This document shows positions 1,477 to 50,862 of a stretch of DNA of 64,000 nt, piece by piece. Positions within the stretch are counted from its first letter, which is position 1, and each line of letters starts with the position of its first letter. The notes under the pieces were generated by a model. The model did no database searches. It saw nothing but the letters and a program-made list of their open reading frames with translations, and had not been told where the DNA came from. Made by a program: the position numbers and the translations under genes. This stretch comes from Enterobacteria phage Kha5h: the sequence record NC_054905.1; one strand, 5' to 3'.

Positions 1477-1501
1477 TTTATTCTCCTTAGTTGATAGGGT
1501 A

Positions 1502-1531
1502 ATAGTATCACACTACTACCCTTCTGTAAAC
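1502..1531 (-). promoter_or_regulatory. sigma70-type phage early promoter (-35 GTTTAC, 18-nt spacer, -10 TACTAT)
   Basis: minus-strand GTTTAC at 1526..1531 and TACTAT at 1502..1507; same cassette recurs through the window. Confidence 0.5.
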
Positions 1532-1917
1532 TACTTTTTGAAAGTTTTTCGCAAAAGTTCAATGATTTCATCTACATTGTTTTCGTCTACAATGCAGTGA
1601 ATTTTTGTTACGCCAGAAACTATACCTTCATTAGCGGATTGAGGCTTTTCTAAAGTTACCTCAGTAAAGTATTTGAATTCTTCAGAGTAAATCTCAAAAT
1701 ACGTCTCAAGTGGGCCACCCGCCATGTATTCAGTGCCATCTTCCATAGTTACACGTACCACACATTCACCAGCACAATCATCACTTTCCATTTCATCTAC
1801 AACAAAACTAGGTCCGTGCTTCTCTATTAAATTTAGCATCATTACATTGCAACGACACTCGTTAGCAAAGTCATTTTTAAATAAAGGGTTAATGATATAA
1901 GTTTTTCCAACTTCCAT
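1531..1917 (-). CDS. hypothetical early protein (128 aa)
   Basis: track ORF. Confidence 0.55.
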   Translation of the reverse strand: MEVGKTYIINPLFKNDFANECRCNVMMLNLIEKHGPSFVVDEMESDDCAGECVVRVTMEDGTEYMAGGPLETYFEIYSEEFKYFTEVTLEKPQSANEGIVSGVTKIHCIVDENNVDEIIELLRKTFKK

Positions 1918-1963
1918 TTTGATTTCCTCATTTTAACGGGGCTATCAAATAGCCCCTTGATAA

Positions 1964-2191
1964 TTATTGTTCAATCAATCCCATGTAAAATTCTGCGTCT
2001 TCAGAATCCATGCCATCACAATATTCATTAGCCATAAAGCGGGTGAGGTCTTCAAGAGGACCTTCAATAACGATTTGAATACTCCAAAACTTAGAATCTT
2101 GCACGCTTGTGATACTAAGTTCAGGATAACGATTACGAATAATTTCTTCAATATATTCAAAATCAACGATGTCAATATCAACTTTAGCCAT
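1964..2191 (-). CDS. hypothetical early protein (~75 aa; start moved to internal ATG with strong SD AAAGAGGAAA)
   Basis: track ORF 1964..2254 extends into the promoter; ATG at 2189..2191 is preceded by a Shine-Dalgarno. Confidence 0.5.
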
Positions 2192-2234
2192 ATTATTTTC
2201 CTCTTTAATCATCAGCAGTATTGCCGATAGTTGT

Positions 2235-2264
2235 ATAGTACCACGGAAGAACAAGGATGTAAAC
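2235..2264 (-). promoter_or_regulatory. phage early promoter (GTTTAC, 18 nt, TACTAT)
   Basis: minus-strand GTTTAC 2259..2264, TACTAT 2235..2240. Confidence 0.5.
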
Positions 2265-2297
2265 CGTTTTGTGAAAAAAAATTTTTGAAATAAAAAA

Positions 2298-2316
2298 GGG
2301 GACCCTAGAGGTCCCC
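2298..2316 (-). terminator. rho-independent terminator downstream of gene 32
   Basis: 7-bp GC stem ggggacc/ggtcccc with 5-nt loop, followed on the minus strand by a T-run. Confidence 0.7.
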
Positions 2317-2338
2317 GATTAATTAGTAATATAATCTA

Positions 2339-3247
2339 TTAAAGGTCATTCAAAAGGTCATCCAGGTCCGTGTCATCAGCACTAGATGAACTACCAGAGC
2401 TTGAGCTCATAAAATCATCTTCAGTTTTTGTATTGAAGTCATCAACATTGAATGCATCCAAATCATCAGCAACTTTATCAGCTTTCTTAGCAGCAGTTGC
2501 AGCGGCACCGCCCATCACAGCAGTTCCCATGACTTGACCGAATTTAGTGCTCAGTTCTTCAAATGATTTGAATTTATCTTTAGAAGTCATTTCAGAAAGG
2601 TCAACCATTTGTTCGAACAGTTCTTTCTGGAAAGATTCATCATCAATGTTTGGAATCGCAGATTGATTCAGGAATTTAGATTCGTCGTAGTTACTAAAAC
2701 CAGAAACTTGTTTAACTTTCAGTACAAAGTTAGCACCTTCCCACGGACAAGTTACATCAACCGGAGTTTCACCCATTTCAACATCAACTGCAATCATTGC
2801 ATTGATTTTATCCCAGATTTTCTTACCGAAACGGTATTTAAATACTTTACCTTCGTTTTCTGGAGCAGCTGGGTCTTTTACTACAAGAATGTTAGCCCAG
2901 TAAGAAGTTTTACGTTTAACAAGACCGTACTCTTTATTGTCAGTGTTGTACAGATCATTTTTACTGATGTACTGACATACTGGGCAAGAATCGTAATCAC
3001 CGTGGGTAGATGAACAGTTTTCAATATACCATTTACCATTTTTCTTGAAACCGTGATTTACAAGAATTGCGAATGGTGCTTGTTCATCATTTTTAGACGG
3101 AAGAAAACGAATTACTGCTTGACCGTTACCCGCATTGTCGAGTTTCAGTTTCCACTCGCCTTTATCTTCAGAAGAAAAACCGCCTTTATTTCCAGCCAGT
3201 TTAGCCATTTGTGCAGCGAGTTCAGCAGTAGATTTACGTTTAAACAT
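2339..3247 (-). CDS. 32: single-stranded DNA-binding protein gp32
   Basis: 302 aa; [19 protein letters not shown]... matches T4 gp32 from memory, acidic C-terminus. Confidence 0.97.
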
Positions 3248-3330
3248 TTTTATTTCCTTTTTAATTTAATTAACAGTTGGTGCTATGACGATGTATGACC
3301 TCATAGCTGGTCAGTGAGATAATTATAATC
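3248..3330 (-). promoter_or_regulatory. gene 32 autoregulatory translational operator (5' leader pseudoknot plus AU-rich tract)
   Basis: minus-strand leader reads GCUAUGAGGUCAUACAUCGUCAUAGCACCAACUGUUAAUUAAAUUAAAAAGGAAAUAAAAAUG, as remembered for the T4 gene 32 operator. Confidence 0.75.
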
Positions 3331-4590: not shown

Positions 4591-5508
4591 TCAAAATTCA
4601 TTAATGCTATTAGTTAATTTAGAAAGACCCGCTTTTACAAAATATGAATAAATTTTGCCACGCGGTGGTAATTTATATGAATTATAGTAATTCACAATGT
4701 TTGAAGCAATATTATCAGGAATATAATCAAAATCAATTAGAACTAAATTTTCTTTATAACGATTATATTCAGATTCTGTGAGAAGCACCTTAGCTTGCTC
4801 ACGGTCATTAGCAATAGCTTCAACGATTGAAGTTTTCATTGAAGGAGTTCGTTCACCTTCAACTTTGGTAAACCAAAAGTCAGATCGTACTTTAACTGAA
4901 GCAACGTTATCCTTTTTGTCGCCTTTAAGGATTTTAGTCATGCAATCAATTTCAGCAGAACCGCTTTTAATTTTAACCCATTTCTTATGCATCGGTGACC
5001 ATTGCTTAACATTTGGGTATTTGTGAAGCTGTGTAAAGTCACCATCCGACGAAATGATTAAAATCTTATGTCCTTCTAAAGAGAACTTTTTAACAAGAAC
5101 AGCAATATGGTCATCTGCTTCATACTTATCAATATCCATAACAATGTATGGCATATAAGCTTTCAATTCATCTATAACTTTATGGCTGGATTCAAAATAA
5201 CCTTCCCAGTCCCAAGTAGATTCTTCTCGTGCTTTTCCACGGTTTTTCTTGTAATAATACGCAAAATCACGACGCCAGTATCCAGATTTCGCGTTATCAA
5301 TACACAGTACAATTTTAGTGTATCCAAGCGTTTTTGCTTTTTTGACATTAAACTTAATTGAGTTCAATATCAAATGACGAACCATTGATAAATTAATTTT
5401 TTCTTTATCTGGGAAGTTTACCAAAGCAGTTGAAAGCGCAATTTGACTAAAGTCAATAAAGCAAATTCCTTCTTTGTAATCTTCATCCAGCATCATTTCT
5501 AAATCCAT
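4591..5508 (-). CDS. rnh: RNase H (5'-3' exonuclease, FEN family)
   Basis: 305 aa from ATG 5508 (MDLEMMLDEDYKEGICFIDFSQ...); track ORF begins at an upstream TTG. Confidence 0.93.
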   Translation of the reverse strand: MDLEMMLDEDYKEGICFIDFSQIALSTALVNFPDKEKINLSMVRHLILNSIKFNVKKAKTLGYTKIVLCIDNAKSGYWRRDFAYYYKKNRGKAREESTWDWEGYFESSHKVIDELKAYMPYIVMDIDKYEADDHIAVLVKKFSLEGHKILIISSDGDFTQLHKYPNVKQWSPMHKKWVKIKSGSAEIDCMTKILKGDKKDNVASVKVRSDFWFTKVEGERTPSMKTSIVEAIANDREQAKVLLTESEYNRYKENLVLIDFDYIPDNIASNIVNYYNSYKLPPRGKIYSYFVKAGLSKLTNSINEF

Positions 5509-5570
5509 ATGAACCTCGTTCAATTAGTGAGATTTCTATTATATACCATCCAAATCTTAAAGTAAACAAG

Positions 5571-5578
5571 TATAAATA
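5571..5578 (+). promoter_or_regulatory. late promoter (TATAAATA) for gene 34
   Basis: exact TATAAATA 35 nt upstream of the gene 34 ATG. Confidence 0.7.
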
Positions 5579-5612
5579 CTTATTATTGAAAACACAATAG
5601 GAGCCCGGGAGA

Positions 5613-16792: not shown

Positions 16793-17065
16793 TTATTTGT
16801 TCGTATACATCTCTAGATATCGATATACACCCTCAAAACCCTCGTTGAATTCGTCGATGAGGGTTTTCTTATCTTCCTGAGTTAATTCAGAAACAATTTT
16901 ACGGAATGAATTCTGATTTAATTTTCTACCTTCATGCGTTACTCCAATCTCATTCAGAAATGCAATAAAATTAGCACGATTCTCAACAATATCTTCTCTG
17001 GAAAATTTAATCAAAATAGACGCAACAGTAATAATTTCACGAACTGTATCAATGTTTTTATTCAT
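16793..17065 (-). CDS. asiA: anti-sigma70 factor AsiA
   Basis: 90 aa, MNKNIDTVREIITVASILIKFSREDIVENRANF... Confidence 0.95.
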   Translation of the reverse strand: MNKNIDTVREIITVASILIKFSREDIVENRANFIAFLNEIGVTHEGRKLNQNSFRKIVSELTQEDKKTLIDEFNEGFEGVYRYLEMYTNK

Positions 17066-17077
17066 TAACTATACCAC

Positions 17078-17230
17078 TCAATTAGTTGACTTTATTATAA
17101 TATCATCAGACGCTTGATTTGTAAACTGGTCTGTGTTATTTTCTTCAAAAATTTTTTCTACGAATTCCTTGAACGACTCGCGTTCCTGAGCTACATTATG
17201 CTCAATTACCATTTCAAGATTATGACTCAT
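17078..17230 (-). CDS. possible small protein (50 aa)
   Basis: ATG overlaps the arn stop; no Shine-Dalgarno; acidic. Confidence 0.3.
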   Translation of the reverse strand: MSHNLEMVIEHNVAQERESFKEFVEKIFEENNTDQFTNQASDDIIIKSTN

Positions 17231-18884: not shown

Positions 18885-19520
18885 TCACAGTTCAGATGCT
18901 ACAGTGATTACAGCTTCAATGTTTTCTGCTGAACGTTTAATGTCAAGATACACATTACCGTTTTTAGCGATTTTACATGACATTCCGATATCAGTAAATT
19001 TCTGAATATGATGTTCCATCATTTTGTATCCAAAAATTCGCATATTTCCATTATTGTTAATTTCAAAATTACGAATTCCGTGAGTGCGTTTTTCTAAAAT
19101 AGCGAGATAGTTACTGCGATAAGTTTCAACCTTTTTAAGAACAAATCCATTTTCATCTAAAAGTTTTAACATGAAGTCTTTATCTTCTTCCATATCAGAA
19201 GTAATCTCACGAGATTTACGAGTTGCTCGTTTTTTCAGCAGTTCCGGAGCATTTTCCTGTGCGTATAAAGTTGCTGCGTTTGAAATAATATCCTGAGCTT
19301 CACCAGTAATGATTAATCCATCACCAGATTTCTCTACCAGGCCCTTTTTAATCAATACACCAATATTACTATTAACTACTGCGTTACCTAAATCTGGATG
19401 CACCTCACGAACTTCTGCAGCTGTAATGAAATCTTTCTTAGCAATAGTAATTAAAATCGCAGCAGTTTTTTCATTCAGAACATCGTTAGAAGCTTTGATG
19501 ATGTAAGTTACTTTAGACAT
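18885..19520 (-). CDS. motA: middle-transcription activator MotA
   Basis: 211 aa, MSKVTYIIKASNDVLNEKTAAILITIAKKDFITAAEVREV... Confidence 0.95.
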   Translation of the reverse strand: MSKVTYIIKASNDVLNEKTAAILITIAKKDFITAAEVREVHPDLGNAVVNSNIGVLIKKGLVEKSGDGLIITGEAQDIISNAATLYAQENAPELLKKRATRKSREITSDMEEDKDFMLKLLDENGFVLKKVETYRSNYLAILEKRTHGIRNFEINNNGNMRIFGYKMMEHHIQKFTDIGMSCKIAKNGNVYLDIKRSAENIEAVITVASEL

Positions 19521-19561
19521 TTTCTAATCTCCGTAATTCTGTATCAGTAGTTGATAGTTGT

Positions 19562-19591
19562 ATAGTACCATAGAATGCTTTGGTTGTAAAC
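19562..19591 (-). promoter_or_regulatory. phage early promoter (GTTTAC, 18 nt, TACTAT) upstream of motA
   Basis: minus-strand GTTTAC 19586..19591, TACTAT 19562..19567. Confidence 0.55.
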
Positions 19592-19620
19592 CGTTTTGTG
19601 AAAAAATTTTAAAATAAAAA

Positions 19621-19640
19621 GGGAGAGCCGAGGCTCTCCC
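19621..19640 (-). terminator. rho-independent terminator
   Basis: gggagagcc tcgg ctctccc followed on the minus strand by tttttatttt. Confidence 0.65.
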
Positions 19641-19645
19641 TAAAA

Positions 19646-22557: not shown

Positions 22558-22657
22558 AATAAGCGTTTAATACATCAATCATTAAAACGATTGGGAATAT
22601 ACTCAAAACTATTAGTATTATAACTACATTCCATATAGCTTTAATAATCTTTTTCAT
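22544..22657 (-). CDS. small membrane peptide (37 aa)
   Basis: ATG at 22657 preceded by GGAGGAACAGAAA; MKKIIKAIWNVVIILIVLSIFPIVLMIDVLNAYFGFM. Confidence 0.5.
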   Translation of the reverse strand: MKKIIKAIWNVVIILIVLSIFPIVLMIDVLNAYFGFM

Positions 22658-22685
22658 TTTCTGTTCCTCCGTAGTTGATAGGGTA

Positions 22686-22715
22686 ATAGTACCACGGAAG
22701 AACAGTCTTGTAAAC
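22686..22715 (-). promoter_or_regulatory. phage early promoter (GTTTAC, 18 nt, TACTAT)
   Basis: minus-strand GTTTAC 22710..22715, TACTAT 22686..22691. Confidence 0.5.
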
Positions 22716-22900
22716 AACTTTTTTAAAAATATTCGTAATAAATGTGAATACCAACTACTACCGCTGAAACCTGTGCAACCCACCACGCACAAGCAATAAG
22801 TACAGAATTCAAAATTTTCATAATAACCTCATCACAAAAGTAAATGTTAAACAAATTACTGGAATACTAATTAACCAAACAAAACACCACCATAATGAAC

Positions 22901-23164
22901 TCATAGCTCAATCTCAGCGATTTTCATTTCATTACTATTAATAGCCTCTTTAAGACTATCTGAAAGAATTACATTCCAGTGGTCATTCATATGACCATTA
23001 ACTAAGCGTGTAATTTCTTCAGGAGTTGAAAAATAAGGCTGATCAGACTCCCAATGCGATAATCCTAAGCGAGTATAAATCATGCCTTCATCATCGCTCG
23101 AATATTCAACTGACACAAACTCATCAGTTATTTTATGTTTAGCGTAATAAAATTTAAATTTCAT
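22901..23164 (-). CDS. hypothetical protein (87 aa)
   Basis: ATG 23164 preceded by GGAG; track ORF begins at upstream TTG. Confidence 0.55.
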   Translation of the reverse strand: MKFKFYYAKHKITDEFVSVEYSSDDEGMIYTRLGLSHWESDQPYFSTPEEITRLVNGHMNDHWNVILSDSLKEAINSNEMKIAEIEL

Positions 23165-23231: not shown

Positions 23232-23249
23232 CGTTTTGTGAAAAAAATT

Positions 23250-27493: not shown

Positions 27494-29314
27494 CTACTGG
27501 CTCATCCATTCTTTACGAAGGTCAGCGTTATCTCCCATGAGCATTTCAAAAAGCTCTTTCCAGTTCTCAGGAAGTTTAACAACGTCATATACTGGATTTT
27601 GAATCATTTCACGATATTCAGATTTTTCCAAAGAGCCAAGTCCTTTAATATAACGGATGCTATGTTTAGGTAGAGCATCTTTGGCACTCTCATATTCAGC
27701 GACTGTATAAAACCATTCTTGTTTTTTACCGACCTGAGCGATGATTACAGGAGTTTTGACAAAGCGAATTCGTCCTTGCTCAAACAATTCTGGCCAATTA
27801 CTAAAAAATCCGAGCAGAGAAGGATAAATGCTTCCTAGACCATCATGGTCAGCATCAGTCATAATAGCAATATTGCGATAATTCAAGTTTTCAGCTTTTT
27901 CACCAAGAACTAGACCAGTGATTGCGCAAATATCAAATAGTTCTTTGTTTTTAAGCATATCTGCATAAGACATACCCCAACTGTTGAGAACTTTACCACG
28001 CAATGGATAACCACCGTGAAGTTCTTTATCACGAACATCAATAAGATATCCGATAGCCGAATCACCCTCGGTTAAGAACAATGTAGTATCAGCATCTTTA
28101 CCGCAAAGATTCGCTTTGATATGTTTATGAACCTTAGCTTTAGAAGCCTTTTTAGCTGCTTTAGTTTCTGCTGCTTTTTCTGCTGCCAATTTACGAGCTA
28201 ATGCTGCTTCAATAATTGGCATCAAAATTGCTTCATTATTTAGAATAGCGCGTGAAATCTTTTTAGCATCAAGTTGAATATGACTACGGATTTCACCAAA
28301 TGGAGAAGTCAAACGCTCTTTAGTCTGAGAATCAAATCGCATGTTTTTCATATCACGAACAAACATAACGATAGTCAAACATTCTTTAACACGTGCTTTA
28401 GTTACATCAATTTTGAACTTACGTTTGATTTGTGGAATAAGGTCTTCACAAATATCATCCATAACACAGTCAATGTGATGGCCACCATTCTTAGTATGAA
28501 TGTTATTGACGTACGTCAACTGACGAAAACCATCCGGTGAACGACCAACCGCAATAGAACAATTTTCTTGTTCTTGAACAATAGCATGTTCATCATACTG
28601 TCGTGCATATTTCTTAAAATTGCCCTGAACCTTTTTACCATTAAAGGTAAATTGAATATCAGGATAAACAACAGCAAGTGTCTGGAGACGATCCAGTGTA
28701 ATGTCAAGATAAACTTGGGACAGCTCATTAGTTTCAAATGACATAAAATCAGGAATGAAAGTAACACGGGTTCCTTTCCATTTTCCAGGAATATCTTCCC
28801 ATGATTTATTTTCCATGCCATTTGAACAACGAACTACAATATTATTTTGACCATCGCCAGTTTCACCAACAAACATCACAGAAAAAATGTTTGTCAAACT
28901 AGAACCAACACCGTTCATACCACCGGTGACGCGTTCTTTATCATCACCGAAGTTACCACCTGCTTTTGGAATAGTCCACGCAGCAACAGGACCAGGAATT
29001 TCTTCACCGGTAGGTGTTTTAACCATCGCTTGTGGAATACCACGACCGTTATCTTCAACTGTTACTTGATTGTTTTTAATAGTAACATTAATTTTATTTG
29101 CGAATTTAAACTTAGTACGAATACCTTCATCTACTGAGTTATCGATAATTTCATCAATAAGCTTAACAAGACCAGGTACATACTGAACACTTTCCCATTT
29201 ACCAAACAGAAAGCGCTCATGCATTTCATTAGCAGAAGAGCCAATGTACATGCCACTACGCTTTTTGATATGTTCAATATCGCTCAGAATTTTAATTTCA
29301 TTCTTAATCATCAC
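27494..29314 (-). CDS. 39: DNA topoisomerase II large subunit gp39, uninterrupted form (equivalent to T4 gp39 plus gp60)
   Basis: 606 aa with GyrB-like ATPase and Toprim regions in one ORF. Confidence 0.9.
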   Translation of the reverse strand: MMIKNEIKILSDIEHIKKRSGMYIGSSANEMHERFLFGKWESVQYVPGLVKLIDEIIDNSVDEGIRTKFKFANKINVTIKNNQVTVEDNGRGIPQAMVKTPTGEEIPGPVAAWTIPKAGGNFGDDKERVTGGMNGVGSSLTNIFSVMFVGETGDGQNNIVVRCSNGMENKSWEDIPGKWKGTRVTFIPDFMSFETNELSQVYLDITLDRLQTLAVVYPDIQFTFNGKKVQGNFKKYARQYDEHAIVQEQENCSIAVGRSPDGFRQLTYVNNIHTKNGGHHIDCVMDDICEDLIPQIKRKFKIDVTKARVKECLTIVMFVRDMKNMRFDSQTKERLTSPFGEIRSHIQLDAKKISRAILNNEAILMPIIEAALARKLAAEKAAETKAAKKASKAKVHKHIKANLCGKDADTTLFLTEGDSAIGYLIDVRDKELHGGYPLRGKVLNSWGMSYADMLKNKELFDICAITGLVLGEKAENLNYRNIAIMTDADHDGLGSIYPSLLGFFSNWPELFEQGRIRFVKTPVIIAQVGKKQEWFYTVAEYESAKDALPKHSIRYIKGLGSLEKSEYREMIQNPVYDVVKLPENWKELFEMLMGDNADLRKEWMSQ

Positions 29315-30854: not shown

Positions 30855-31124
30855 TTAATTGAACAGTGGAGCGATGCGTTTCAGAAGAGTAGCAGCACCT
30901 TTGGCAAATTTTACATCATGAAAAACAGTTTCTTCTTCCGTTACAACACGAGCTTTAATGTTTTCACAATCCCAATTTTTACGAACAATCTTCAAAAGCT
31001 GCAGTAAATCTTTACATTCAGCAATATCGATAACACATCCACGAGAATCTTCCATTATCGCACGATAACCGTAAGCCATACCATAATCATTGAAAGATTG
31101 CTCGATGATAATTAAATTTTCCAT
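30855..31124 (-). CDS. hypothetical protein (89 aa)
   Basis: ATG 31124 preceded by the conserved leader GGAGAATAAA. Confidence 0.55.
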   Translation of the reverse strand: MENLIIIEQSFNDYGMAYGYRAIMEDSRGCVIDIAECKDLLQLLKIVRKNWDCENIKARVVTEEETVFHDVKFAKGAATLLKRIAPLFN

Positions 31125-31221
31125 TTTATTCTCCAAGTTGTTTTCTGTATCAGTAGTTGATATTGATATAGTACCATAATCAACTACTGATGTATATAGT
31201 TTTATGAAAAAATTTTAAACT

Positions 31222-31713
31222 TTATGCATAGCGAGCTTTGCTGTAGTGTTTAATCCAACTTTCAGGAATGACTTTGTATGTTCCTAAAAATACCGCGTTG
31301 TATAACTTAACGCCATCTTCTACCCATTGATCAGTAATGTATGCACACATAGCGCGAGTACGGTTAACAACACCTTCCTCACCTTCAGTAAATTCAAACT
31401 CATAAGGAGCAACGAACTTGATAGCTTGACCGAGTTTCCACTTAAAGTCTACACCTACATGCGAAGTATCAATCGTTTCAATTCCTTTAGCGGGAACAGC
31501 TTTCAAAAACGCAGGCTCAAGAAATTTCCATCGAACATAACCAAACTGAGGTTTAGACATTCCATCTTTAGGAATGATACGCACTTTTACTTCAGAATCT
31601 TCATCTTTAACACCATGTTTAAGCTGAATGCTTACGACTTCAACCAATTTTCCTGCTGCTTTAGAACGGGATTTATCAGATACACGAGCAATTTCACCGA
31701 TATTAATATTCAT
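31222..31713 (-). CDS. motB: MotB (modifier of transcription)
   Basis: 163 aa, MNINIGEIARVSDKSRSKAAGKLVEVVSIQLKHG... Confidence 0.8.
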   Translation of the reverse strand: MNINIGEIARVSDKSRSKAAGKLVEVVSIQLKHGVKDEDSEVKVRIIPKDGMSKPQFGYVRWKFLEPAFLKAVPAKGIETIDTSHVGVDFKWKLGQAIKFVAPYEFEFTEGEEGVVNRTRAMCAYITDQWVEDGVKLYNAVFLGTYKVIPESWIKHYSKARYA

Positions 31714-31786
31714 AATTATCTCTCACTTGTTAAAAAGATTTTATACTCCGCAGGACCATTATACTCTGGTCCCAAGAGTTTGTAAA

Positions 31787-32224
31787 CTAGCTTACACGAA
31801 CATTAATCACTGCGCTACGAGGAACTACAGAGTATTCTCCAGCATGAACTACGTTCAGAAGTTCAACACCATCTTCAATCCACTGATCAGTCACCCATCC
31901 ACCCACAGGATTCGCGAATGGACGACGAATATAAACTGCCTTACACAGCAGATCAGTTGGATCTTCAGGTTTTTCAATTTCTGTCAATAGACTAAAATCT
32001 TTTTCATAAATAATAAGCGATGATACCATTCCATAATAGTTTCTAATTTCAATATACATCATACCGATAAGAATTCCGCTATTAACACTAATAACAGTAA
32101 AAGGATATCCGCCAGTTAAACCAAGAAGTTCACAAAACTTATTATGAGCTGTATTAGACAGTACCGAAAAATTCTTAATTTCATCAAATTTTTTCAATTG
32201 ATAAACAGCATTATTTTTAATCAT
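31787..32224 (-). CDS. hypothetical protein with MotB C-terminal-like domain (145 aa)
   Basis: C-terminus VTDQWIEDGVELLNVVHAGEYSVVPRS aligns with MotB ITDQWVEDGVKLYNAVFLGTYKVIPES. Confidence 0.6.
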   Translation of the reverse strand: MIKNNAVYQLKKFDEIKNFSVLSNTAHNKFCELLGLTGGYPFTVISVNSGILIGMMYIEIRNYYGMVSSLIIYEKDFSLLTEIEKPEDPTDLLCKAVYIRRPFANPVGGWVTDQWIEDGVELLNVVHAGEYSVVPRSAVINVRVS

Positions 32225-32234: not shown

Positions 32235-32777
32235 TTAATCTAAAGTAATAAAGCCTTTTAATTCGGCATGTGATTTGCGGAACATTACTTGGTGCCCGCC
32301 AATGATAACTTGGTCATCAGGTACTTCGTATACAGCGAGATAAAATCCTTTAGAAGCTAATTCTTCACGCTCTTCTCGTGTGAACCATCTCATCATATCA
32401 TATTCGCTAGCGAAAGCAAAATGATAAAGAGCTATAAACCATCCTGGAATATAGTGATCTACGCCTACATATTCTTCTTTCTCAAAATTAGTATTAATTG
32501 CTATATTAGCATTTTTAACTAATAATTTGTCTTCATGCGGCACAGGAATTCTTTTATTATCATTACTATGATGCATAAAATTGGGTCTGTCATAACCTAC
32601 GCGTAATAACCACTCTTCACTCCATGAATCTATTATACTCCTGTACGGAGTTATTTGAACACAAAGATTTCGACGTATTGTTATAGCATCTTCATAATTA
32701 AGAATACTAAACGATGATTCAACACGATAAATTTTCATTTTATTATCCTCAGTAGCTATGGTGTTATAATACCACAA
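32235..32777 (-). CDS. hypothetical protein (180 aa)
   Basis: track ORF. Confidence 0.55.
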   Translation of the reverse strand: MWYYNTIATEDNKMKIYRVESSFSILNYEDAITIRRNLCVQITPYRSIIDSWSEEWLLRVGYDRPNFMHHSNDNKRIPVPHEDKLLVKNANIAINTNFEKEEYVGVDHYIPGWFIALYHFAFASEYDMMRWFTREEREELASKGFYLAVYEVPDDQVIIGGHQVMFRKSHAELKGFITLD

Positions 32778-32801
32778 CTAACCGAGGAAGTAAACAACTT
32801 T

Positions 32802-33485
32802 TTATCGTTTTGTTGGAAGAGACAGAGGATCGCACTCTTCCTCTGACGGAGCATCTTCAAGACCCATAGCATAGCGCAAAGCATACTTCATCATCAGGAT
32901 GTCTTTCGCACAGTCATGAATAGAATCATGTGCAACGAATCCATCTAAGGTTCCCTTTGGAAGAGGACAAGTGGTCATATCACGAACAAGGAGAAGTGCT
33001 TCAATTCTAGTACGAATGTCGCGTTGATTCCAGAATTTACACGGTTCTAACTTAAATGTATCAAGCTCATTCTCGGAAACGCCGTTAAGACGTTGAATAT
33101 CGCGAATGAGATCGACTAAAATTGGAAAATCAAACGACATTCCACGGCACCAACCTTGAGATTTCCAAGGATCGATATTATGTGCATTGATGTAATCATT
33201 AAATTTTGCAATACCGTCAATAGTGCTTACATCTTCATCTGATGGTGCAATATTTTTTCTAGCTTCAGGTGATTGATTTTTCCACCATTCGATAGTGCTT
33301 TTAGTAAAAAGACGATGTCCTTTTTGGCTTTTTAAATCAAATTTGATTTTAATGCCACGTGAAACTAATTCATCAAACGTTTCAACGACTTCTGGATTAG
33401 GGTCAAAAGCAATTACAGCCAAATCAATAACAGCTGCTTTTTCACCACTTCCCATTGTTTCAAAATCTATAATAAAATCAAACAT
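32802..33485 (-). CDS. dexA: exonuclease A (DexA, 3'-5' DEDD-type)
   Basis: 227 aa, MFDFIIDFETMGSGEKAAVIDLAVIAF... Confidence 0.9.
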   Translation of the reverse strand: MFDFIIDFETMGSGEKAAVIDLAVIAFDPNPEVVETFDELVSRGIKIKFDLKSQKGHRLFTKSTIEWWKNQSPEARKNIAPSDEDVSTIDGIAKFNDYINAHNIDPWKSQGWCRGMSFDFPILVDLIRDIQRLNGVSENELDTFKLEPCKFWNQRDIRTRIEALLLVRDMTTCPLPKGTLDGFVAHDSIHDCAKDILMMKYALRYAMGLEDAPSEEECDPLSLPTKR

Positions 33486-35847: not shown

Positions 35848-36594
35848 TTATCCTCGGATAAGTTTAAAAATTGAACAATTTAGCGGGTATCCTCTTTTTA
35901 ATTTGAGTTTATCAATAAATGATAAGTTTTGAAACCGCTCTACACCTTGAATAATTTTATCACACATATCATATTGCATTTCTGCTTCTGACAACTTTTT
36001 CACAGTTTTCCAATCCGAGCCTTTAAGAAGAACGTTCAATTTAACAACTTCAGCGCCTTCTGCTATACGAGAACCATCAATACGAGCTTTAAGTGCTATA
36101 ATTCTTAGCTTAATGTCAGAGGTCTGTTTTGATTTAGAAAGCTGAGAAATGTGTTCAATTCGGTTTTCACGTTTTTTCTGTATAGCTTTAATTTGATTAT
36201 AAGTCTTTTTGATTTTAGCCCATTTCTTTTCATCTAAATTTAGTTTATGAACTTTTTTCGCAGATGAACGACCAATTCGCAAAGCAAATAAATCACGCTT
36301 TTCAATCAACTCTTCTAAAGTATAATCAGAACGAAATGTATTATACTTTTTCTTTACTGCAATAACATTCCCTTTAATGTATCCAACGTTATTATCAAAA
36401 CGTTCTAATGATAATTTCTCTCCTTCAATACGATTATCAAAAGGTTCTCCCGAGTAAGCGCAAACTTTTTGATCTAAAATGTTCTTAATGTAATTGAAGT
36501 CTAAGTTAAAATCTTTAGAACGTCTTTTTGCAGATGCCTGAGTATGCTCTAAACGACGTTTAATTTTACGAATTTGGTTATTAGACAGCTTCAT
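35848..36594 (-). CDS. srd: Srd-like protein
   Basis: 248 aa basic protein at the T4 srd position. Confidence 0.6.
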   Translation of the reverse strand: MKLSNNQIRKIKRRLEHTQASAKRRSKDFNLDFNYIKNILDQKVCAYSGEPFDNRIEGEKLSLERFDNNVGYIKGNVIAVKKKYNTFRSDYTLEELIEKRDLFALRIGRSSAKKVHKLNLDEKKWAKIKKTYNQIKAIQKKRENRIEHISQLSKSKQTSDIKLRIIALKARIDGSRIAEGAEVVKLNVLLKGSDWKTVKKLSEAEMQYDMCDKIIQGVERFQNLSFIDKLKLKRGYPLNCSIFKLIRG

Positions 36595-36630
36595 ATTTTT
36601 CTCACATCTTACGGACGGTTAACTACTTAT

Positions 36631-36660
36631 ACTATAACATTTTTACTTTAACCTGTAAAC
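36631..36660 (-). promoter_or_regulatory. phage early promoter (GTTTAC, 18 nt, TATAGT) upstream of srd
   Basis: minus-strand GTTTAC 36655..36660, TATAGT 36631..36636. Confidence 0.5.
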
Positions 36661-36717
36661 AACTTTATGTAAAAATGCTTTAAAAATTTCATGGTATAAT
36701 GAATCTAAGTCCTTCCA

Positions 36718-37320: not shown

Positions 37321-37940
37321 TCAATTACCTCAATATCATAAACTTTAAATGTTCCAAATGAATCGTGTAATTTTTCTTTTGAAATAGAAGTTATTTTATA
37401 CTTTCCAATTGGAATCATCCATTCTTGTTCATGTACAATCATCATTAAGTTATCAGTTCTTTCTGAATCTAACCCATCAGTATCTTCATACGTGTACTTA
37501 AACTCAGTGTTAGGAGAAGAAAGTATAATATCGCTGATATGGTCAGAATAATTAAAAGCTTTATCAGTTTTTAAACGAAGTATTGTTTCAGTGAAATATT
37601 CAGCATAAGAAAAAGAACACGCTGTATGCAAACTAGTAGTAAATGAATCTACTCTGTTCGTTGAAAACACTTCTCCAACTTGTAAATCTTTAATAAGTTC
37701 TTTTGTCGATTTTGATATACCACGATATAATTGATAAGGCGATTTAGTTAAATGCTTTTTAATGATTTTATTCAACTGCCTATGAAGAGCTTCATTCTTT
37801 TTGGCTTCCATACATTGCCAAAGAACAGACTGCTCGAAGTCAGTAAATTTTTCACAGACTTTTTTATACATATCATGTTGAAAATCAACGCTTTCAGCTT
37901 TTATAGATAACTGTTCAACATCTGCAGGATTAATAATCAT
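37317..37940 (-). CDS. modB: ADP-ribosyltransferase ModB
   Basis: 207 aa, adjacent paralog of modA. Confidence 0.75.
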   Translation of the reverse strand: MIINPADVEQLSIKAESVDFQHDMYKKVCEKFTDFEQSVLWQCMEAKKNEALHRQLNKIIKKHLTKSPYQLYRGISKSTKELIKDLQVGEVFSTNRVDSFTTSLHTACSFSYAEYFTETILRLKTDKAFNYSDHISDIILSSPNTEFKYTYEDTDGLDSERTDNLMMIVHEQEWMIPIGKYKITSISKEKLHDSFGTFKVYDIEVIE

Positions 37941-38007
37941 GATAGCCTCCGTATACTTCAGAAGCTATCATATCATCGTTAGAAAGGAAAGTAAACAACT
38001 TTTTGAA

Positions 38008-38190
38008 TTATTTTGCCCAGGGAGCCCAAGGCGGAGGGTCAAGATGGTATGAAGCTAGTTCTTCTAGAAGAGCATCTGGGGCTTCAATTCCATAATTCTG
38101 TAATACTATACGGTACTCTTTCTTATAATCACTAGAATCATTCTGGATATTCGTAGAATGATTATCTTCTAACATCTCAAATAAATCCAT
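38008..38190 (-). CDS. hypothetical protein (60 aa)
   Basis: track ORF. Confidence 0.5.
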   Translation of the reverse strand: MDLFEMLEDNHSTNIQNDSSDYKKEYRIVLQNYGIEAPDALLEELASYHLDPPPWAPWAK

Positions 38191-39836: not shown

Positions 39837-40042
39837 TACAAAAAGCCTCTCTTAAATTCGACTTGCTTCTCGCCATAATCATATCGAATCTCTGCATTAA
39901 ATTCGACAGAACCATCTGCGTACATCATAAATGAATGTACAACAACTTCTGTAGACCATGGCTGTAGTTCATATTTCTTCATTACATGCCGTGAAATGAT
40001 AATATCTAAATCTTCATTTGGTTTAATCCAGCGATTTAACAT
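39836..40042 (-). CDS. hypothetical protein (68 aa)
   Basis: track ORF downstream of an early promoter. Confidence 0.5.
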   Translation of the reverse strand: MLNRWIKPNEDLDIIISRHVMKKYELQPWSTEVVVHSFMMYADGSVEFNAEIRYDYGEKQVEFKRGFL

Positions 40043-40068
40043 AGTGCTCTCCTCTATAAGATAATTCT

Positions 40069-40098
40069 ATTATACCATACTCATTTTGGAAAGTAAAC
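40069..40098 (-). promoter_or_regulatory. phage early promoter (GTTTAC, 18 nt, TATAAT)
   Basis: minus-strand GTTTAC 40093..40098, TATAAT 40069..40074. Confidence 0.55.
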
Positions 40099-40113
40099 CG
40101 TTTAAATGAAAAA

Positions 40114-40133
40114 AGGACTCCCGAAGGAGTCCT
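40114..40133 (-). terminator. UUCG-tetraloop hairpin after soc
   Basis: aggactcc cgaa ggagtcct. Confidence 0.5.
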
Positions 40134-40140
40134 TGAATTA

Positions 40141-44208: not shown

Positions 44209-44501
44209 TATTCACCTACCACTTCAGCGATGATATTTTTGTTATTAAAGTTTTTATCGCAATACAGAACATAATTATACTGCATTACACCACCAGACTT
44301 AAGTTGTTTTTGCACTTCAGCTTTCATTTCAGGACGATCGCGCTCAACGATATTCATAATATCCGCTTCAATTTGAGTTTCAACTTCAGTCTGATCTGCA
44401 GTCATAGACCATTCACACAAATCTTTATCATATCCTGCCATAGCAGGCTGAGCAGCGCAAGAAGCTAAAGCAAAAATTGTGGCAAAGATAAATTTTTTCA
44501 T
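44208..44501 (-). CDS. sp: periplasmic protein Spackle-like (superinfection exclusion)
   Basis: 97 aa with N-terminal signal peptide MKKFIFATIFALASCAAQPAMA, size and position as T4 sp. Confidence 0.7.
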   Translation of the reverse strand: MKKFIFATIFALASCAAQPAMAGYDKDLCEWSMTADQTEVETQIEADIMNIVERDRPEMKAEVQKQLKSGGVMQYNYVLYCDKNFNNKNIIAEVVGE

Positions 44502-44561
44502 GATAATCTCCTCAGTAGTTTATGTTTATATAGTATCTCAATTTCCAACAAAAGTAAACAG

Positions 44562-44861
44562 CTATTTTAAAACTTCTGCGTAATCACATGTTACAAACTG
44601 TTTCTCTAGCTTAACGATTTTACGAAAATACCTTTTATACTGACGAATCTGCCTCTTCGTAGGACGTACAGCAAACTTAATAAATTCCACTAGACCAAAT
44701 GGAGGACTTTCTTCTGCTGGAATATCTAACACCAATTCCCACGTATCTGCAATAAGTGCTTTGAATTGCGTATTTTTCCTGACGTTATACGGAGTAGGTT
44801 TAAATAAAACAATATGCATATTATCCTCGGCAATCCACTTCGCACACTTTCTTGTCATCAA
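44562..44861 (-). CDS. hypothetical protein (99 aa), 61.4-like by position
   Basis: track ORF. Confidence 0.5.
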   Translation of the reverse strand: MMTRKCAKWIAEDNMHIVLFKPTPYNVRKNTQFKALIADTWELVLDIPAEESPPFGLVEFIKFAVRPTKRQIRQYKRYFRKIVKLEKQFVTCDYAEVLK

Positions 44862-45003
44862 TGAAAGCTTTAACTAATGCTTTATTAACTTCAGCATACT
44901 GAGTAGTAGCCCATTGAACGTCATCTTTCATCATTGTGGTTTCTTTAGTAAACATGCTTTCATTCTTAAACCACCCCATAAAAACTACCTTTACCAATTC
45001 CAT
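44821..45003 (-). CDS. dmd: Dmd-like antitoxin (discriminator of mRNA degradation)
   Basis: 60 aa at the T4 dmd position next to gene 41. Confidence 0.65.
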   Translation of the reverse strand: MELVKVVFMGWFKNESMFTKETTMMKDDVQWATTQYAEVNKALVKAFIDDKKVCEVDCRG

Positions 45004-45032
45004 AACAATCTCCTCATTTAACCAACAAGACT

Positions 45033-45062
45033 ACTATACCATAGTCTCGTCAGCTTGTAAAC
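45033..45062 (-). promoter_or_regulatory. phage early promoter (GTTTAC, 18 nt, TATAGT) upstream of the dmd-like gene
   Basis: minus-strand GTTTAC 45057..45062, TATAGT 45033..45038. Confidence 0.5.
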
Positions 45063-46489
45063 TAAAATTTTAATTCATTCGCCAAAGCATCTAACTGAGC
45101 TCGAGTCGATTCGTTTCTTTGATAGCGATTCTGTTCAGCCTGAATCTGTTGTGAACCTGCTACCTCACTCACTTCAGTTGGAGTAGAATCTTGTTCAATT
45201 TCTACCCATTTCTGATTTCCCTTTTGAACACCCATCAAAAACTTATTCCACTTATTCTTATCGCCATATCGTGATTTGATTTGCTTAATGAGTTGTTGTT
45301 CAGCAGCTGCTAGCTCCTCGGTTTCAATGACCGCAAGCATAAAATCAGCTGTTGCTGGAAGACCAGCAGATTCTGCAATATCGCTCATGTTAACATCAGA
45401 AGAGTCCCAAGCTTGTTTACCGACCTGTGCTGCAGTCCAAAGAACAGTTTCGGTTTCAACAGCCAGAGCACGCAATTCCTCTGCAATAGCTTTAACAGTT
45501 GTGTAACTATTTTCTGAATAAACTCTGATGCGGCAAGATTTACAAATACCTAGATAGTCGACAATAATGATTGTTGGAACAAAATTCTTTTTGAGCTTTA
45601 ATTCATTTAAAAGTGATCGAAATGTATTAGCATCTGCTCCACCAGTAGGGTACTGTTTAACGATTAAACGACCAAGAGTAGATTTCTCACGCCATTTTTC
45701 CATTTTTCCTTTATACTCGGCGTAAGAAATATGTCCATCATCAATATCGTCAAGAGAAACATCGAGCATATTAGCATCAATACGTTTAGCGCAGACTTCT
45801 TCTGCCATTTCCATGGAGATATAAAGAACGTTATGACCAAGCTGCAAATAATCTGCTGCTAATGAACAAAGTCCTAATGATTTACCAACGTTAACGCCAG
45901 CCATTAAAACGTTCAGTGTTCCAGTCTCAGCTCCGCCTTTAGTAATTTTGTTTAGAATTCTGAGTTTAAATGGAACCTTACGAGCTTTATTCATATAAGA
46001 TAGCCAACGCGCTTCGTAGTCATCCATCCAATCATGACCAACGTAACTATCAAATGAAATTGATAATGCTTGGCGCATGATGTCAGGAATAGCACCTACA
46101 TCTGGCATTTTCTTATTTCGTTTTTCCGGAGGAAGCTCAGCATTAGTTTGAATTTCGATTATTTTAGACGTAGCATTAAACATCGCCCTTTGCTGAACAT
46201 ATTTTTCTGTTTCTTTTACTAACCAACTGTGGTCTTCCGGAGAATCAGCTAGTTTTGAAATAAGTGTTTTTACACCAGAATATTCTGTTTCAGTAAATGA
46301 ACTATTTTCTAATGCAACATTTAACGCATTAATAGATGGAACGCTATGATACTCATTGACATGAGATTTAATTAATTTGAATGTATTTTTAGCTGGACCA
46401 CTTTCAAAATATTCTGAATCCATATATGGCCAAACTTTTGAAAAATAAGCTTGATCAAATATGAGATGAGAAAGAATAATTTCTACCAC
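45062..46489 (-). CDS. 41: replicative DNA helicase gp41 (DnaB-like)
   Basis: 475 aa; Walker A GVNVGKS. Confidence 0.95.
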   Translation of the reverse strand: MVEIILSHLIFDQAYFSKVWPYMDSEYFESGPAKNTFKLIKSHVNEYHSVPSINALNVALENSSFTETEYSGVKTLISKLADSPEDHSWLVKETEKYVQQRAMFNATSKIIEIQTNAELPPEKRNKKMPDVGAIPDIMRQALSISFDSYVGHDWMDDYEARWLSYMNKARKVPFKLRILNKITKGGAETGTLNVLMAGVNVGKSLGLCSLAADYLQLGHNVLYISMEMAEEVCAKRIDANMLDVSLDDIDDGHISYAEYKGKMEKWREKSTLGRLIVKQYPTGGADANTFRSLLNELKLKKNFVPTIIIVDYLGICKSCRIRVYSENSYTTVKAIAEELRALAVETETVLWTAAQVGKQAWDSSDVNMSDIAESAGLPATADFMLAVIETEELAAAEQQLIKQIKSRYGDKNKWNKFLMGVQKGNQKWVEIEQDSTPTEVSEVAGSQQIQAEQNRYQRNESTRAQLDALANELKF

Positions 46490-48940: not shown

Positions 48941-49671
48941 TCACCGTTATAATCTTTTTTCACAATATGAGTTTCGCCAGTATTCCACCAATGATCAACC
49001 AAGTAAAAATGACGAGAATATACATGAAGACTTCCAACATTCCATATAATAGAACCTGCTTTATACTGACGAGTTGAATCGCCTGCATTCAAATCAGATA
49101 CTAATTTATCTAATACGTATTTTTGCCATGCATAATCATTACGGAATCCGAAGACCACGTCATTTGAGCGCATGCTTACTACTGCATTGACTTTCTTATC
49201 ACGAATCAGGTACTGTACTGTATTAGTACACATGAAATCTGACATACCATCTTTATTGTAGTCAAATTGCATGGATGGACGAGTATAAATCATGATACCA
49301 CGCCGAGAATCAGGATTTTGACCAAGTTCAGCTAAACACATATCATACTGGGCATAGTTATCTTCTGACCAAATAGCCCAACCATAATTCGAGTTAATTT
49401 CGCCTTTAGAAGATGCTACCTGCTGCCAAATCTTTGGTGTTTCACCTGGAATATCTTTAACAAACAAGCTCTTAGATTTATACCATTCAAGTTCGCGCTG
49501 AATGTATTCATCATTAAGAGCGCCAAAAATAAACGGTTCATCTGCTACAAATGATGCGCCAATAATTTCAATAGTTTTAACACCAGTTTTATCAACTACG
49601 AAATCTTTTTCCTTTAATGCAAGCCCCAAATGAAGACGGATTTCTTCAACTGTCATAGAGTCACTAATCAT
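48931..49671 (-). CDS. 42: dCMP hydroxymethylase gp42
   Basis: 246 aa, thymidylate-synthase-like fold sequence. Confidence 0.95.
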   Translation of the reverse strand: MISDSMTVEEIRLHLGLALKEKDFVVDKTGVKTIEIIGASFVADEPFIFGALNDEYIQRELEWYKSKSLFVKDIPGETPKIWQQVASSKGEINSNYGWAIWSEDNYAQYDMCLAELGQNPDSRRGIMIYTRPSMQFDYNKDGMSDFMCTNTVQYLIRDKKVNAVVSMRSNDVVFGFRNDYAWQKYVLDKLVSDLNAGDSTRQYKAGSIIWNVGSLHVYSRHFYLVDHWWNTGETHIVKKDYNGEWK

Positions 49672-49697
49672 TTAAACCTCAATTGATGCATTCATAT

Positions 49698-49829
49698 TTA
49701 AATTGTAACAGTAATAAACCCCACCCCTATGATAAGAGTTGGAATCATAGCAGGAACTGTTACGCTATAGTATATACTTATTATAACCATCAAGATTAAA
49801 AGCAACACTGTTATAATTTTGCTTTTCAT
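49698..49829 (-). CDS. small membrane peptide (43 aa)
   Basis: MKSKIITVLLLILMVIISIYYSVTVPAMIPTLIIGVGFITVTI; ATGA overlap with imm stop. Confidence 0.4.
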   Translation of the reverse strand: MKSKIITVLLLILMVIISIYYSVTVPAMIPTLIIGVGFITVTI

Positions 49830-50077
49830 TCTTTCTCTCTGATGATAATTACCTGATTTGGCTGTGCAGACTTTTTAGTTTCACCAGCAATTGACCAAAT
49901 AAATGTAATAAACCAACCAATAATTGACCAGTTAAACAGTAAAGATGTGAAAAAGATTCCTACTGTCGATTTTGACCCACGCATCAAGGCGATAAACCAT
50001 GGAAGCATGTATATAATAATAGCCAACACACCTGAAACTAAAACCATAAAAATTGAACCTGCTACTAAAGTTTCCAT
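49826..50077 (-). CDS. imm: superinfection immunity protein Imm
   Basis: 83 aa membrane protein, METLVAGSIFMVLVSGVLAIIIYMLPWFIALMRG... Confidence 0.85.
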   Translation of the reverse strand: METLVAGSIFMVLVSGVLAIIIYMLPWFIALMRGSKSTVGIFFTSLLFNWSIIGWFITFIWSIAGETKKSAQPNQVIIIREKE

Positions 50078-50084
50078 GTTTTCC

Positions 50085-50465
50085 TCACTTAGTCAAATTT
50101 TTTACACATGAATTATAAGAATTCACTACATACTCCATCGGAGCATTTTTACCAGTACGCCATTGGTAATTATTAGCCCAATTAGCCCAAATTTCGGCGC
50201 AGTAGTTTTCAATTTTTTCTTCGCGTGTAATTACATCAGAATTACGATATGCTTGAGCAGATTCATCTGGACGAATAGCTTCGTCAAAATTCGCCTGCAT
50301 TTGTTCGACTGTTTGCTTTGGAGCTTCTTTATAACACTTGACATTAGGATTATAAAATTTGCTTGAACAGTTTACAATTTTTCCTACATCAGACTGATTT
50401 ACTACCGGTCCTTGAGCTACACAACCAGTAAGACCTAATGCAATAACCAAAATAGCGATTTTCAT
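50085..50465 (-). CDS. putative lipoprotein (126 aa)
   Basis: signal peptide with lipobox LTGC: MKIAILVIALGLTGCVAQ... Confidence 0.6.
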   Translation of the reverse strand: MKIAILVIALGLTGCVAQGPVVNQSDVGKIVNCSSKFYNPNVKCYKEAPKQTVEQMQANFDEAIRPDESAQAYRNSDVITREEKIENYCAEIWANWANNYQWRTGKNAPMEYVVNSYNSCVKNLTK

Positions 50466-50475
50466 AATAATTTCC

Positions 50476-50712
50476 TCAAATGCAAGTAGTAATTACTCCA
50501 GTAGTGCTTATGCAGGTATTACCCATTTGCACACCTAAAGATCCATTTGTATTCACATGAAGATTATCATCAATTTTAACTGATATTTTACCATTAGTGT
50601 GAATAACGGTGCTAGATTCAATCACAGGTTGAGTATCATTTTCAACACTAACAAATGGAACTGCTGCTAATGCAACTAAACAAACTGCTAAGCATCCCAT
50701 AACAATTTTCAT
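50476..50712 (-). CDS. putative secreted Cys-containing protein (78 aa)
   Basis: ATG 50712 after conserved leader; MKIVMGCLAVCLVALAAVPFVSVEN... Confidence 0.55.
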   Translation of the reverse strand: MKIVMGCLAVCLVALAAVPFVSVENDTQPVIESSTVIHTNGKISVKIDDNLHVNTNGSLGVQMGNTCISTTGVITTCI

Positions 50713-50746
50713 TTTATTCTCCAAATCCGTATTAGTTGATAGTTGT

Positions 50747-50776
50747 ATAGTACCATGGAAGAACAGTCTTGTAAAC
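50747..50776 (-). promoter_or_regulatory. phage early promoter (GTTTAC, 18 nt, TACTAT)
   Basis: minus-strand GTTTAC 50771..50776, TACTAT 50747..50752. Confidence 0.5.
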
Positions 50777-50862
50777 AGTTTTGTGAAAATTTTTTAGGGA
50801 ATTCTAAAGGTCCAGAATCATCTGTTTTTCATAAGTATAGATTTATATTACTTGTATGAAAA

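Follow-up and report, generated by a model that had tools for sequence, protein, structure and literature searches.

The early promoters (Pe) of phage T4 have been catalogued since the 1980s, and compilations are said to have been made by Liebig & Rueger, Wilkens & Rueger, and Miller et al. These promoters combine an UP element, a -35 element, TGn and a -10 element with additional consensus regions, and they outcompete host promoters (Hinton 2010, PMC2988021). One of them, Pe148.6 upstream of rnh, was active 1 min after infection by primer extension (Patterson-West et al., PMC6024815). Composite elements of a similar kind, called PeSLs (promoter-early stem-loops), were defined in RB49 and phi1 together with experiments showing promoter and terminator activity and mini-circles; the same paper already drew attention to analogs among the T4 early promoters, at the internal-protein (IP) loci of Repoila et al. 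1994 (Arbiol et al. 2010, PMC2839356). PeSLs were later listed for PST/T4, with the consensus TTTACW-N17-TAYWAT, and also for nt-1/KVP40 (Comeau et al. 2014, PMC4122927). A 64,000-nucleotide stretch of Enterobacteria phage Kha5h (sequence record NC_054905.1; the whole stretch is called the window here) carries 17 cassettes with this type of promoter, and an exchange at ndd.4/.5 drawn in Fig. 6A of Comeau et al. corresponds to 22.6-23.2 kb of it.

An original prediction had read these cassettes as mobile regulatory modules. Because PeSL shuffling was published in 2010 and 2014, that interpretation restates published work. The feature is real, ordinary and already known, its description was somewhat overstated, and the published shuffling idea is only partly borne out. 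The discovery value is small, since publications of 1994, 2010 and 2014 already carry the proposal that T4 early promoters act as recombination linkers. What the analysis adds is a calibration: across six genomes the cassettes exchange sequence and sometimes form indel junctions, yet the published shuffling claim is tempered.

Identification of the early promoters

The cassettes are very probably T4-like phage early promoters, and each continues into the translation-initiation region of the first early gene under its control. Exact copies of GTTTAC-N18-TACTAT were found on the minus strand at all six predicted sites (1502, 2235, 19562, 22686, 23202, and 50747; cassettes are named by the left end of the core) and at a seventh, 44530, that had been overlooked. 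Three related promoters predicted at 36631, 40069, and 45033, with TATAGT or TATAAT as the -10, are also present. With at most one mismatch allowed, the minus strand had 10 matches and the plus strand none (0.50 expected); 0 of 100 shuffles reached 10. A position-weight matrix that covered the motif with 30 nt before and 20 nt after it found 14 sites that score 18-76 bits, again all on the minus strand (shuffle maximum of 12.7 in 20 shuffles). A relaxed pattern, with 20 minus-strand matches and one plus-strand match against 5.8 expected, added 5538, 27465, and 31758. The total is 17 cassettes (Table 1), all on the minus strand and each directly upstream of an early gene, with an ATG preceded by a Shine-Dalgarno (SD) sequence 25-45 nt away in every case. 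A chance origin of the motif is ruled out by the roughly 20-fold enrichment of the specific motif and the complete strand bias.

The -35 is GTTTAC in 16 of the 17 cassettes, the exception being the degenerate copy at 31168. Counted from TTTACN, the spacing is 17 nt throughout, and TGn is present in most; read with TTTACA as the -35 hexamer, the spacer is the sigma-70 optimum of 17 nt. The position-weight consensus upstream is ttttcAaAaA.C.GTTTAC, and A/T tracts extend over -40 to -60. Cassettes lie at 1-5.6 kb and 16.8-50.8 kb, among early non-essential genes, and none of the 17 falls within 50.9-64 kb (genes 43 to 55). An intragenic TTTACA-N17-TATAGT with TGn occurs within gene 47 (59615-59643, minus strand) and is conserved in T4 at 35669-35698; it may be a named T4 early promoter, perhaps the Pe35.3 mentioned in the literature.

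The window was aligned and chained to T4, Geo, RB32, ECO07P4, and PinkRuby (six genomes in all). A pattern scan of the T4 reference (AF158101, a record without promoter features) recovered 16 cassettes at orthologous loci; the modB site at 37967 and the degenerate 31168 copy also align to T4, and by alignment all 17 hold an orthologous position. The T4 loci are frd.1, frd.3, rnh, asiA, motA, ndd.4, ndd.6, rIIA.1, motB, motB.2, srd, modB, mrh.2, sp, dmd, and imm.1. With T4 early promoters the cassettes share the -35 GTTTAC(A/T), the 17-nt spacer, TGn, the -10 TAnnnT, an A/T-rich upstream tract in the region of the UP element, extra conserved positions, an orientation with the early genes that they precede, and one-to-one positional orthology. 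The predicted early-promoter identity is borne out by this orthology and these class features. No essential difference from T4 was seen; some spacers and leaders differ (the frd.3 spacer, the 50747 leader), and two cassettes drive open reading frames (ORFs) that are missing from T4.

The cassettes are presumably active in Kha5h in the way that their T4 counterparts are. Unmodified host sigma-70 RNA polymerase would be recruited at once upon infection through the A/T-rich tract, which sits where T4 early promoters carry the UP element, the -35 G-TTTAC-A/T, the 17-nt spacer ending in TGn, and the -10 TAnnnT. Transcription would start a few bases past the -10 and give a leader of 25-45 nt ending in a GGAG-type SD sequence.

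Table 1. Early-promoter cassettes of the window and the positions of their T4 counterparts (AF158101).
Cassette	Extent	Core (strand)	Features	T4 position
frd.1-homolog promoter and leader	1474..1576	1502..1531 (-)	25-nt leader with GGAGAATAAAA; ATG at 1476; predicted pairing of spacer with -10 and initial transcribed region, z -4.3	146114-146143
frd.3 promoter	2189..2320	2235..2264 (-)	gene 32 terminator hairpin (GGGGACC..GGGTCCCC and T-run), then promoter and 43-nt leader	146846-146875
rnh promoter	5506..5612	5538..5567 (-)	-10 TATAAT; ortholog of T4 Pe148.6	150734-150763
asiA promoter, inside asiA.1	17063..17171	17097..17126 (-)	-10 TATTAT; product starts MNKNIDTV	161182-161211
motA promoter	19518..19645	19562..19591 (-)	terminator hairpin 19620..19641 upstream; 41-nt leader with GGAG SD	163644-163673
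ndd.4-homolog promoter	22655..22760	22686..22715 (-)	spacer TTCTTCCGTGG pairs with leader CTACGGAGGAA, predicted -14.9 kcal/mol	166778-166807
promoter of ORF 22901..23164 (ndd.6 locus)	23162..23276	23202..23231 (-)	full long leader; exact RegB/S1 consensus	167057-167086
rIIA.1 promoter	27437..27539	27465..27494 (-)	TGn and TATAAT	2429-2458
degenerate cassette, motB/cef	31122..31242	31168..31197 (-)	-35 ATATAC; keeps TGGTACTAT, long leader and GGAGAATAAAA; -10 in predicted hairpin loop	
motB promoter	31711..31832	31758..31787 (-)	TATAAT; predicted GGGACC/GGTCC hairpin over -10, z -3.5	7186-7215
dexA/motB.2 promoter	32736..32840	32766..32795 (-)	spacer pairs with SD-containing leader, predicted -23.7 kcal/mol, z -6.1	8189-8218
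srd promoter	36592..36705	36631..36660 (-)	-10 TATAGT	11822-11851
modB, weaker early-promoter-like site	37938..38041	37967..37996 (-)	-10 TATGAT	
mrh.2 promoter	40040..40140	40069..40098 (-)	soc terminator hairpin about 40113..40134 upstream; TATAAT	15259-15288
sp (spackle) promoter	44499..44604	44530..44559 (-)	exact GTTTAC-N18-TACTAT	20080-20109
dmd promoter	45001..45107	45033..45062 (-)	TATAGT; predicted hairpin over -10, z -4.8	20583-20612
imm.1-locus promoter, downstream of gene 43	50710..50821	50747..50776 (-)	long leader; exact RegB/S1 consensus; drives ORF 50476..50712	27051-27080

Leaders, start codons, and RegB/S1 sites

A conserved leader had been ascribed to the whole set. The shared sequence, ACAACTATCAACTACTGATAC...GGAGAATAAA, is recognisable only at 19562, 23202, 50747, and the degenerate 31168 copy; elsewhere the leaders are different and shorter. 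Gene products starting with MENKMK were also predicted and are not supported. The real start is the ATG 6-8 nt after GGAG, which gives MKF.., MKI.., MKK.., MSK.., MRL.., or MAK.., and the longer start arises because an in-frame TTG within the SD region (TTG GAG AAT AAA ATG AAA) was read as the start codon.

Target sites of RegB/S1 in T4 early mRNA leaders were reportedly described by Durand et al. in 2006. As in T4, GGAG serves as the early-gene SD sequence in 11 of the 17 leaders, whereas six leaders differ in having no GGAG. The strong RegB/S1 site has the consensus GG*AGRAYARAA (review PMC3014915), and GGAGAATAAAA at 1502, 23202, 31168, and 50747 (4 of 17 leaders) is an exact 11-nt match to GGAGRAYARAA. 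The conserved GGAGAATAAA-ATG is therefore most simply explained as a RegB-sensitive SD sequence. The GGAG-type SD of most copies is a potential substrate of the phage RegB/S1 endoribonuclease, which would shut off the early mRNAs a few minutes later.

Predicted stem-loops and masking of ribosome-binding sites

Like PeSLs, the cassettes are composite early promoters that end in an SD sequence and a start codon. PeSLs often have a stem-loop upstream or overlapping, and some cassettes have predicted hairpins. The cassettes differ from PeSLs in that a canonical terminator hairpin with a T-run lies directly upstream in only three of 17, where it ends gene 32 (2235), motA.1 (19562), or soc (40069), and in that a hairpin forms over the -10 in about six. 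The latter are predicted at 1502, 22686, 31168, 31758, 32766, and 45033, where spacer and leader form the stem around a loop that holds the -10 (z -2.9 to -8.5). At 22686 and 32766 the 3' arm of the predicted hairpin includes the SD sequence. No significant stem-loop was predicted at the remaining copies, which number about eight.

The degenerate copy, predicted at about 31150..31200, was located there and has no GTTTAC, as described, but its inverted repeat is 12-13 bp long rather than 11. The repeat is perfect (TCAGTAGTTGAT / ATCAACTACTGA), with a predicted hairpin of -20.2 kcal/mol and a z of -8.5, and the cassette is conserved in all six genomes. Promoters with TGn (an extended -10) can work without a -35. 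The 31168 copy keeps an extended -10, TGGTACTAT, and could therefore still fire without a -35. Downstream of dexA, phages with a DexA that is ~68% identical keep the hairpin architecture of the promoter with a different sequence (spacer TTCTCCTCATG / leader CATGAGGAGAA).

Complementarity of spacer and leader in about a third of the copies suggests that RNA reading through from upstream may fold the ribosome-binding site into a hairpin. Transcripts that begin within the cassette would not include the 5' arm, which would leave the ribosome-binding site unmasked. For e, soc, 49, and I-TevI of T4, transcripts from late promoters reportedly start inside a hairpin (McPheeters et al. 1986; Macdonald et al. 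1984). The arrangement is alike in that the promoter lies within an SD-sequestering hairpin and its own transcript lacks the 5' arm. It differs in that the embedded promoter is early in the window and late in those genes, and in that a function here is suggested by predicted folding alone.

Another hairpin, between denB and denB.1 (23852-23867, both strands), is the symmetric AAGGGCCGAAGCCCTT, which has T-runs on both strands. RB32 and PinkRuby have an extra ~241-bp insertion exactly at this hairpin, without a promoter cassette.

Several points weigh against reading the cassettes as early promoters with regulated leaders. Promoter function is assigned from motif matches and orthology. Two of the sites, 37967 and the degenerate 31168 copy, match weakly and may be inactive. 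A scan of the AT-rich window with generic sigma-70 hexamers stayed at chance level (86 found, 81.9 expected), so only the extended T4-specific motif is informative. GGAG is in any case a good SD sequence, so for copies without the full 11-nt consensus the RegB reading may add nothing. Orthologous hairpins are nearly invariant among close relatives, and the covariation that would argue for the modelled structures is limited to one locus in two lineages.

Sequence exchange between cassettes

The six copies first predicted had been described as near-identical over ~70 bp. Their mean identity is 64% (range 50-81%, ungapped over 80 nt), which is above the random value of 27% and well short of near-identity. 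The resemblance is functional in the main, but the copies are also a dispersed repeat family whose members exchange sequence, presumably through ectopic homologous recombination or gene conversion. Evidence for the second part comes from the spacers, for which we know of no sequence requirement beyond TGn. The spacer AAGACTGTTCTTCC(G/A)TGG occurs at both the 22686 and the 50747 loci in most genomes, and Geo has the same doubly derived spacer, AAGACTGTTCCTCTGTGG, at these two loci, 28 kb apart. Across genomes, the frd.3 promoter has three unrelated spacers. In PinkRuby it is the motA promoter spacer of four other genomes (18 of 18 positions); in the window, RB32, and ECO07P4 it is ATCC(C/T)TGTTCTTCC, a type that is also found at the imm.1 locus; T4 and Geo have the third type. 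The distribution of the AAGACT and ATCCC spacer alleles over loci varies by genome, and the blocks that follow the -10, TACCC or ACAAC, are also swapped between loci.

We searched IMG/VR for further copies. An exact-pattern scan for the long leader returned eight stretches only, too few for population statistics, and a degenerate spacer pattern returned 20 stretches, which were used for allele typing. In these relatives the same spacer family occurs at up to five loci per genome, including copies beyond the range of the window, which lie near 50-57 kb and 66-67 kb when a genome is numbered from the T4 origin. Copies of the same cassette subfamily beyond this range were also seen in vB_EcoM_G8 (IMG/VR 2974742932, ~52 kb) and Yersinia phage ZN18 (~121 kb); one drives a gene starting MNAKDI near thioredoxin, and another joins an intact -35 to the leader of the degenerate 31168 copy.

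Purely convergent, functional resemblance, without common descent or any role in recombination, would account for the fact that the most conserved positions are known polymerase contact elements or the RegB/S1 site, and that most cassettes outside the frd.3/motA/ndd/imm.1 subgroup share only those elements (35-55% identity). Neither it nor chance can explain spacers of 15-18 nt that are identical or nearly so at non-orthologous loci and co-vary within a genome, as at the two Geo loci and in PinkRuby; such shared spacers argue for concerted evolution by ectopic exchange. For the subgroup, convergence is already contradicted, and as a general explanation we regard it as distinctly improbable. 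Concerted evolution, in which the frd.3, motA, ndd.4, imm.1, and some further promoters form a repeat family whose spacer and leader blocks are copied over tens of kilobases, and in which the spacer of several copies doubles as an anti-SD arm that would make translation of the first gene depend on initiation at the proximal promoter, is put forward tentatively, with somewhat less than even confidence in the combined proposal. The pattern of alleles is consistent with recombination as the mechanism. Concerted spacer evolution and spacer/anti-SD hairpins are only increments on known themes; they are not stated in the PeSL papers or in the T4 reviews PMC2988021 and PMC3014915.

Cassettes and gene-content breakpoints

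Cassettes were predicted to coincide with gene-content breakpoints, and in this respect the prediction failed. Among 102 minus-strand junctions, 6 of 17 with a cassette were variable compared with 28 of 85 without (Fisher P = 0.53), although the small number of cassette junctions, 17, leaves a two- to three-fold enrichment compatible with the data. For junctions of at least 40 bp, the counts were 6 of 15 with a cassette and 9 of 15 without. Unique breakpoint edges fell within cassettes in 6 of 54 cases against 2.2 expected at random positions (P = 0.02), and 11% of edges did so against 15.7% expected from gene-boundary positions (P = 0.87). In this six-genome sample, gene-content breakpoints track gene boundaries generally, not promoter cassettes in particular.

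Single cases do resemble mobile modules and give the predicted role qualitative support. At motA, ECO07P4 has an extra 228-bp ORF between two directly repeated copies of promoter plus leader, with ~24 nt of leader in common, which is exactly the PeSL topology. The ORF behind the 23202 leader (22901..23164) is absent from T4 and joined at the repeat ATGAAA; that behind the 50747 leader (50476..50712) is absent from T4, RB32, and ECO07P4, with the junction repeat ATGAAAAT. The first of these encodes 87 aa (minus strand, phrog_2390). Geo, PinkRuby, and ECO07P4 have a syntenic ORF with which it shares only 52-57% identity, compared with ~95% in the flanks, so that a hypervariable allele follows directly on an early promoter. 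Other changes touching cassettes are a 71-bp indel within the 1502 leader, a 258-bp ORF inserted in Geo in the A/T-rich tract just upstream of the 1502 -35, and the dam module of Geo and ECO07P4, which carries its own cassette.

Most changes have no such connection. About two-thirds of ~27 indel events have a cassette neither at their edges nor inside, and five events are homing-endonuclease insertions. Most small-ORF indels occur without a cassette and involve other short repeats, situated at ribosome-binding sites or at the ends of ORFs; repeats at indels of this kind include a 49-bp repeat of an ORF end (43268/43578), ttATG (29644/30017), and AAAATT inside an ORF (30916/31115). The cassettes are located among variable small early ORFs, as predicted.

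Two of these loci can be described further. At 43224-43580 (minus strand), an extra 118-aa ORF that T4 lacks is 34% identical to 61.2, its tandem paralog, and is flanked by the 49-bp direct repeat, which comprises an ORF end and a ribosome-binding site, near 43268 and 43578; it is a clean homology-mediated gain or loss without a promoter. An 89-aa ORF at 30855-31124 (minus strand) is intact in the window, Geo, and PinkRuby, and in T4, RB32, and ECO07P4 a 198-bp internal deletion with AAAATT microhomology has left a short remnant between motB and cef.

These results bear on the view that PeSL-type mobile cassettes are the principal vehicle of gene shuffling, with recombination moving units of ORF plus cassette, possibly as mini-circles, and so setting the differences in gene content. 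The cassettes share with PeSLs the PST/T4 consensus, a concentration among small non-essential early ORFs, and a position at some indel junctions. The model is published, with the mini-circle experiments in RB49 and phi1 (PMC2839356) and an extension to T4/PST (PMC4122927). In the present genomes it can draw on the ECO07P4 ORF flanked by direct repeats, the two ORFs joined at ATGAAA(AT), the dam module, the evident recombination of cassettes with each other, and the excess of breakpoint edges over random positions. Against these stand the lack of enrichment at breakpoints relative to other gene junctions, in which the window in comparison with the five genomes differs from PeSLs, the majority of indels that involve other repeats, and the scarcity of upstream terminator hairpins. 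Moreover, no translocated copies of ten variable small ORFs were found in the window and the five comparators; apart from the tandem 61.2 paralog, all matches are syntenic, so that none of these ORFs turned up at a second locus. We consider a principal role in shuffling unlikely. Occasionally the cassettes act as junctions where small ORFs are gained or lost, as do many microhomologies outside promoters, at the starts and ends of genes.

Sites of a dedicated site-specific recombinase or an autonomous mobile element, comparable to integron attC, would be suggested by the precision of the insertions and by the integron analogy drawn by Arbiol et al. (PMC2839356). The junctions are scattered within and outside the cassettes (A/T-rich upstream tract, leader, ATG, ORF ends), no fixed crossover point or terminal repeats were seen, and many cassettes are stable across the six genomes. 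There is no associated recombinase, and the nearby mobile genes are homing endonucleases with separate insertions. This explanation is highly improbable; nothing in the comparison pointed to either a recombinase site or a mobile element of this sort.

Genomic setting

The window belongs to Tequatrovirus. Megablast of segments 1000-9000 and 18800-24200 against the phage collection matched several hundred Tequatrovirus records, with vB_Eco_Geo (96.1% identity) and Sf22 (97.9%) as best matches. In local BLAST against AF158101, the window and T4 were collinear throughout the interval between frd and gene 55, which in T4 extends from ~145.1 kb through the record end/origin to ~40 kb. The minus strand encodes the early and middle genes, including rIIA (25048-27225), and the plus strand encodes the tail-fibre block (genes 34-38 and t, 5613-16792). 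When the whole window was scanned with Rfam at gathering thresholds, no known RNA family was matched.

Several mobile insertions of T4 are missing. Topoisomerase genes 39 and 60 form one fused 605-aa ORF (27494-29311, minus strand) without mobA or the gene-60 bypass segment, and segG, dam, and mobB are also absent (sites 3310-3346, 41798-41819, and 61763-61788). The position of segF (40412-41248, minus strand) is taken by a different homing endonuclease of 278 aa (phrog_655, E = 5e-33). A 280-aa beta-glucosyl-HMC-alpha-glucosyltransferase (48092-48934, minus strand; phrog_842, E = 2e-88), a DNA glucosylation gene of the T2/T6 type, replaces T4 segA and beta-gt. The distal tail-fibre region (13708-16111, plus strand) is unlike that of T4: gp37 has 1312 aa, and the ORF after it (15312-16103, plus strand) encodes a 263-aa gp38-type adhesin (phrog_2056, E = 7e-102) and not the T4 gp38 chaperone.

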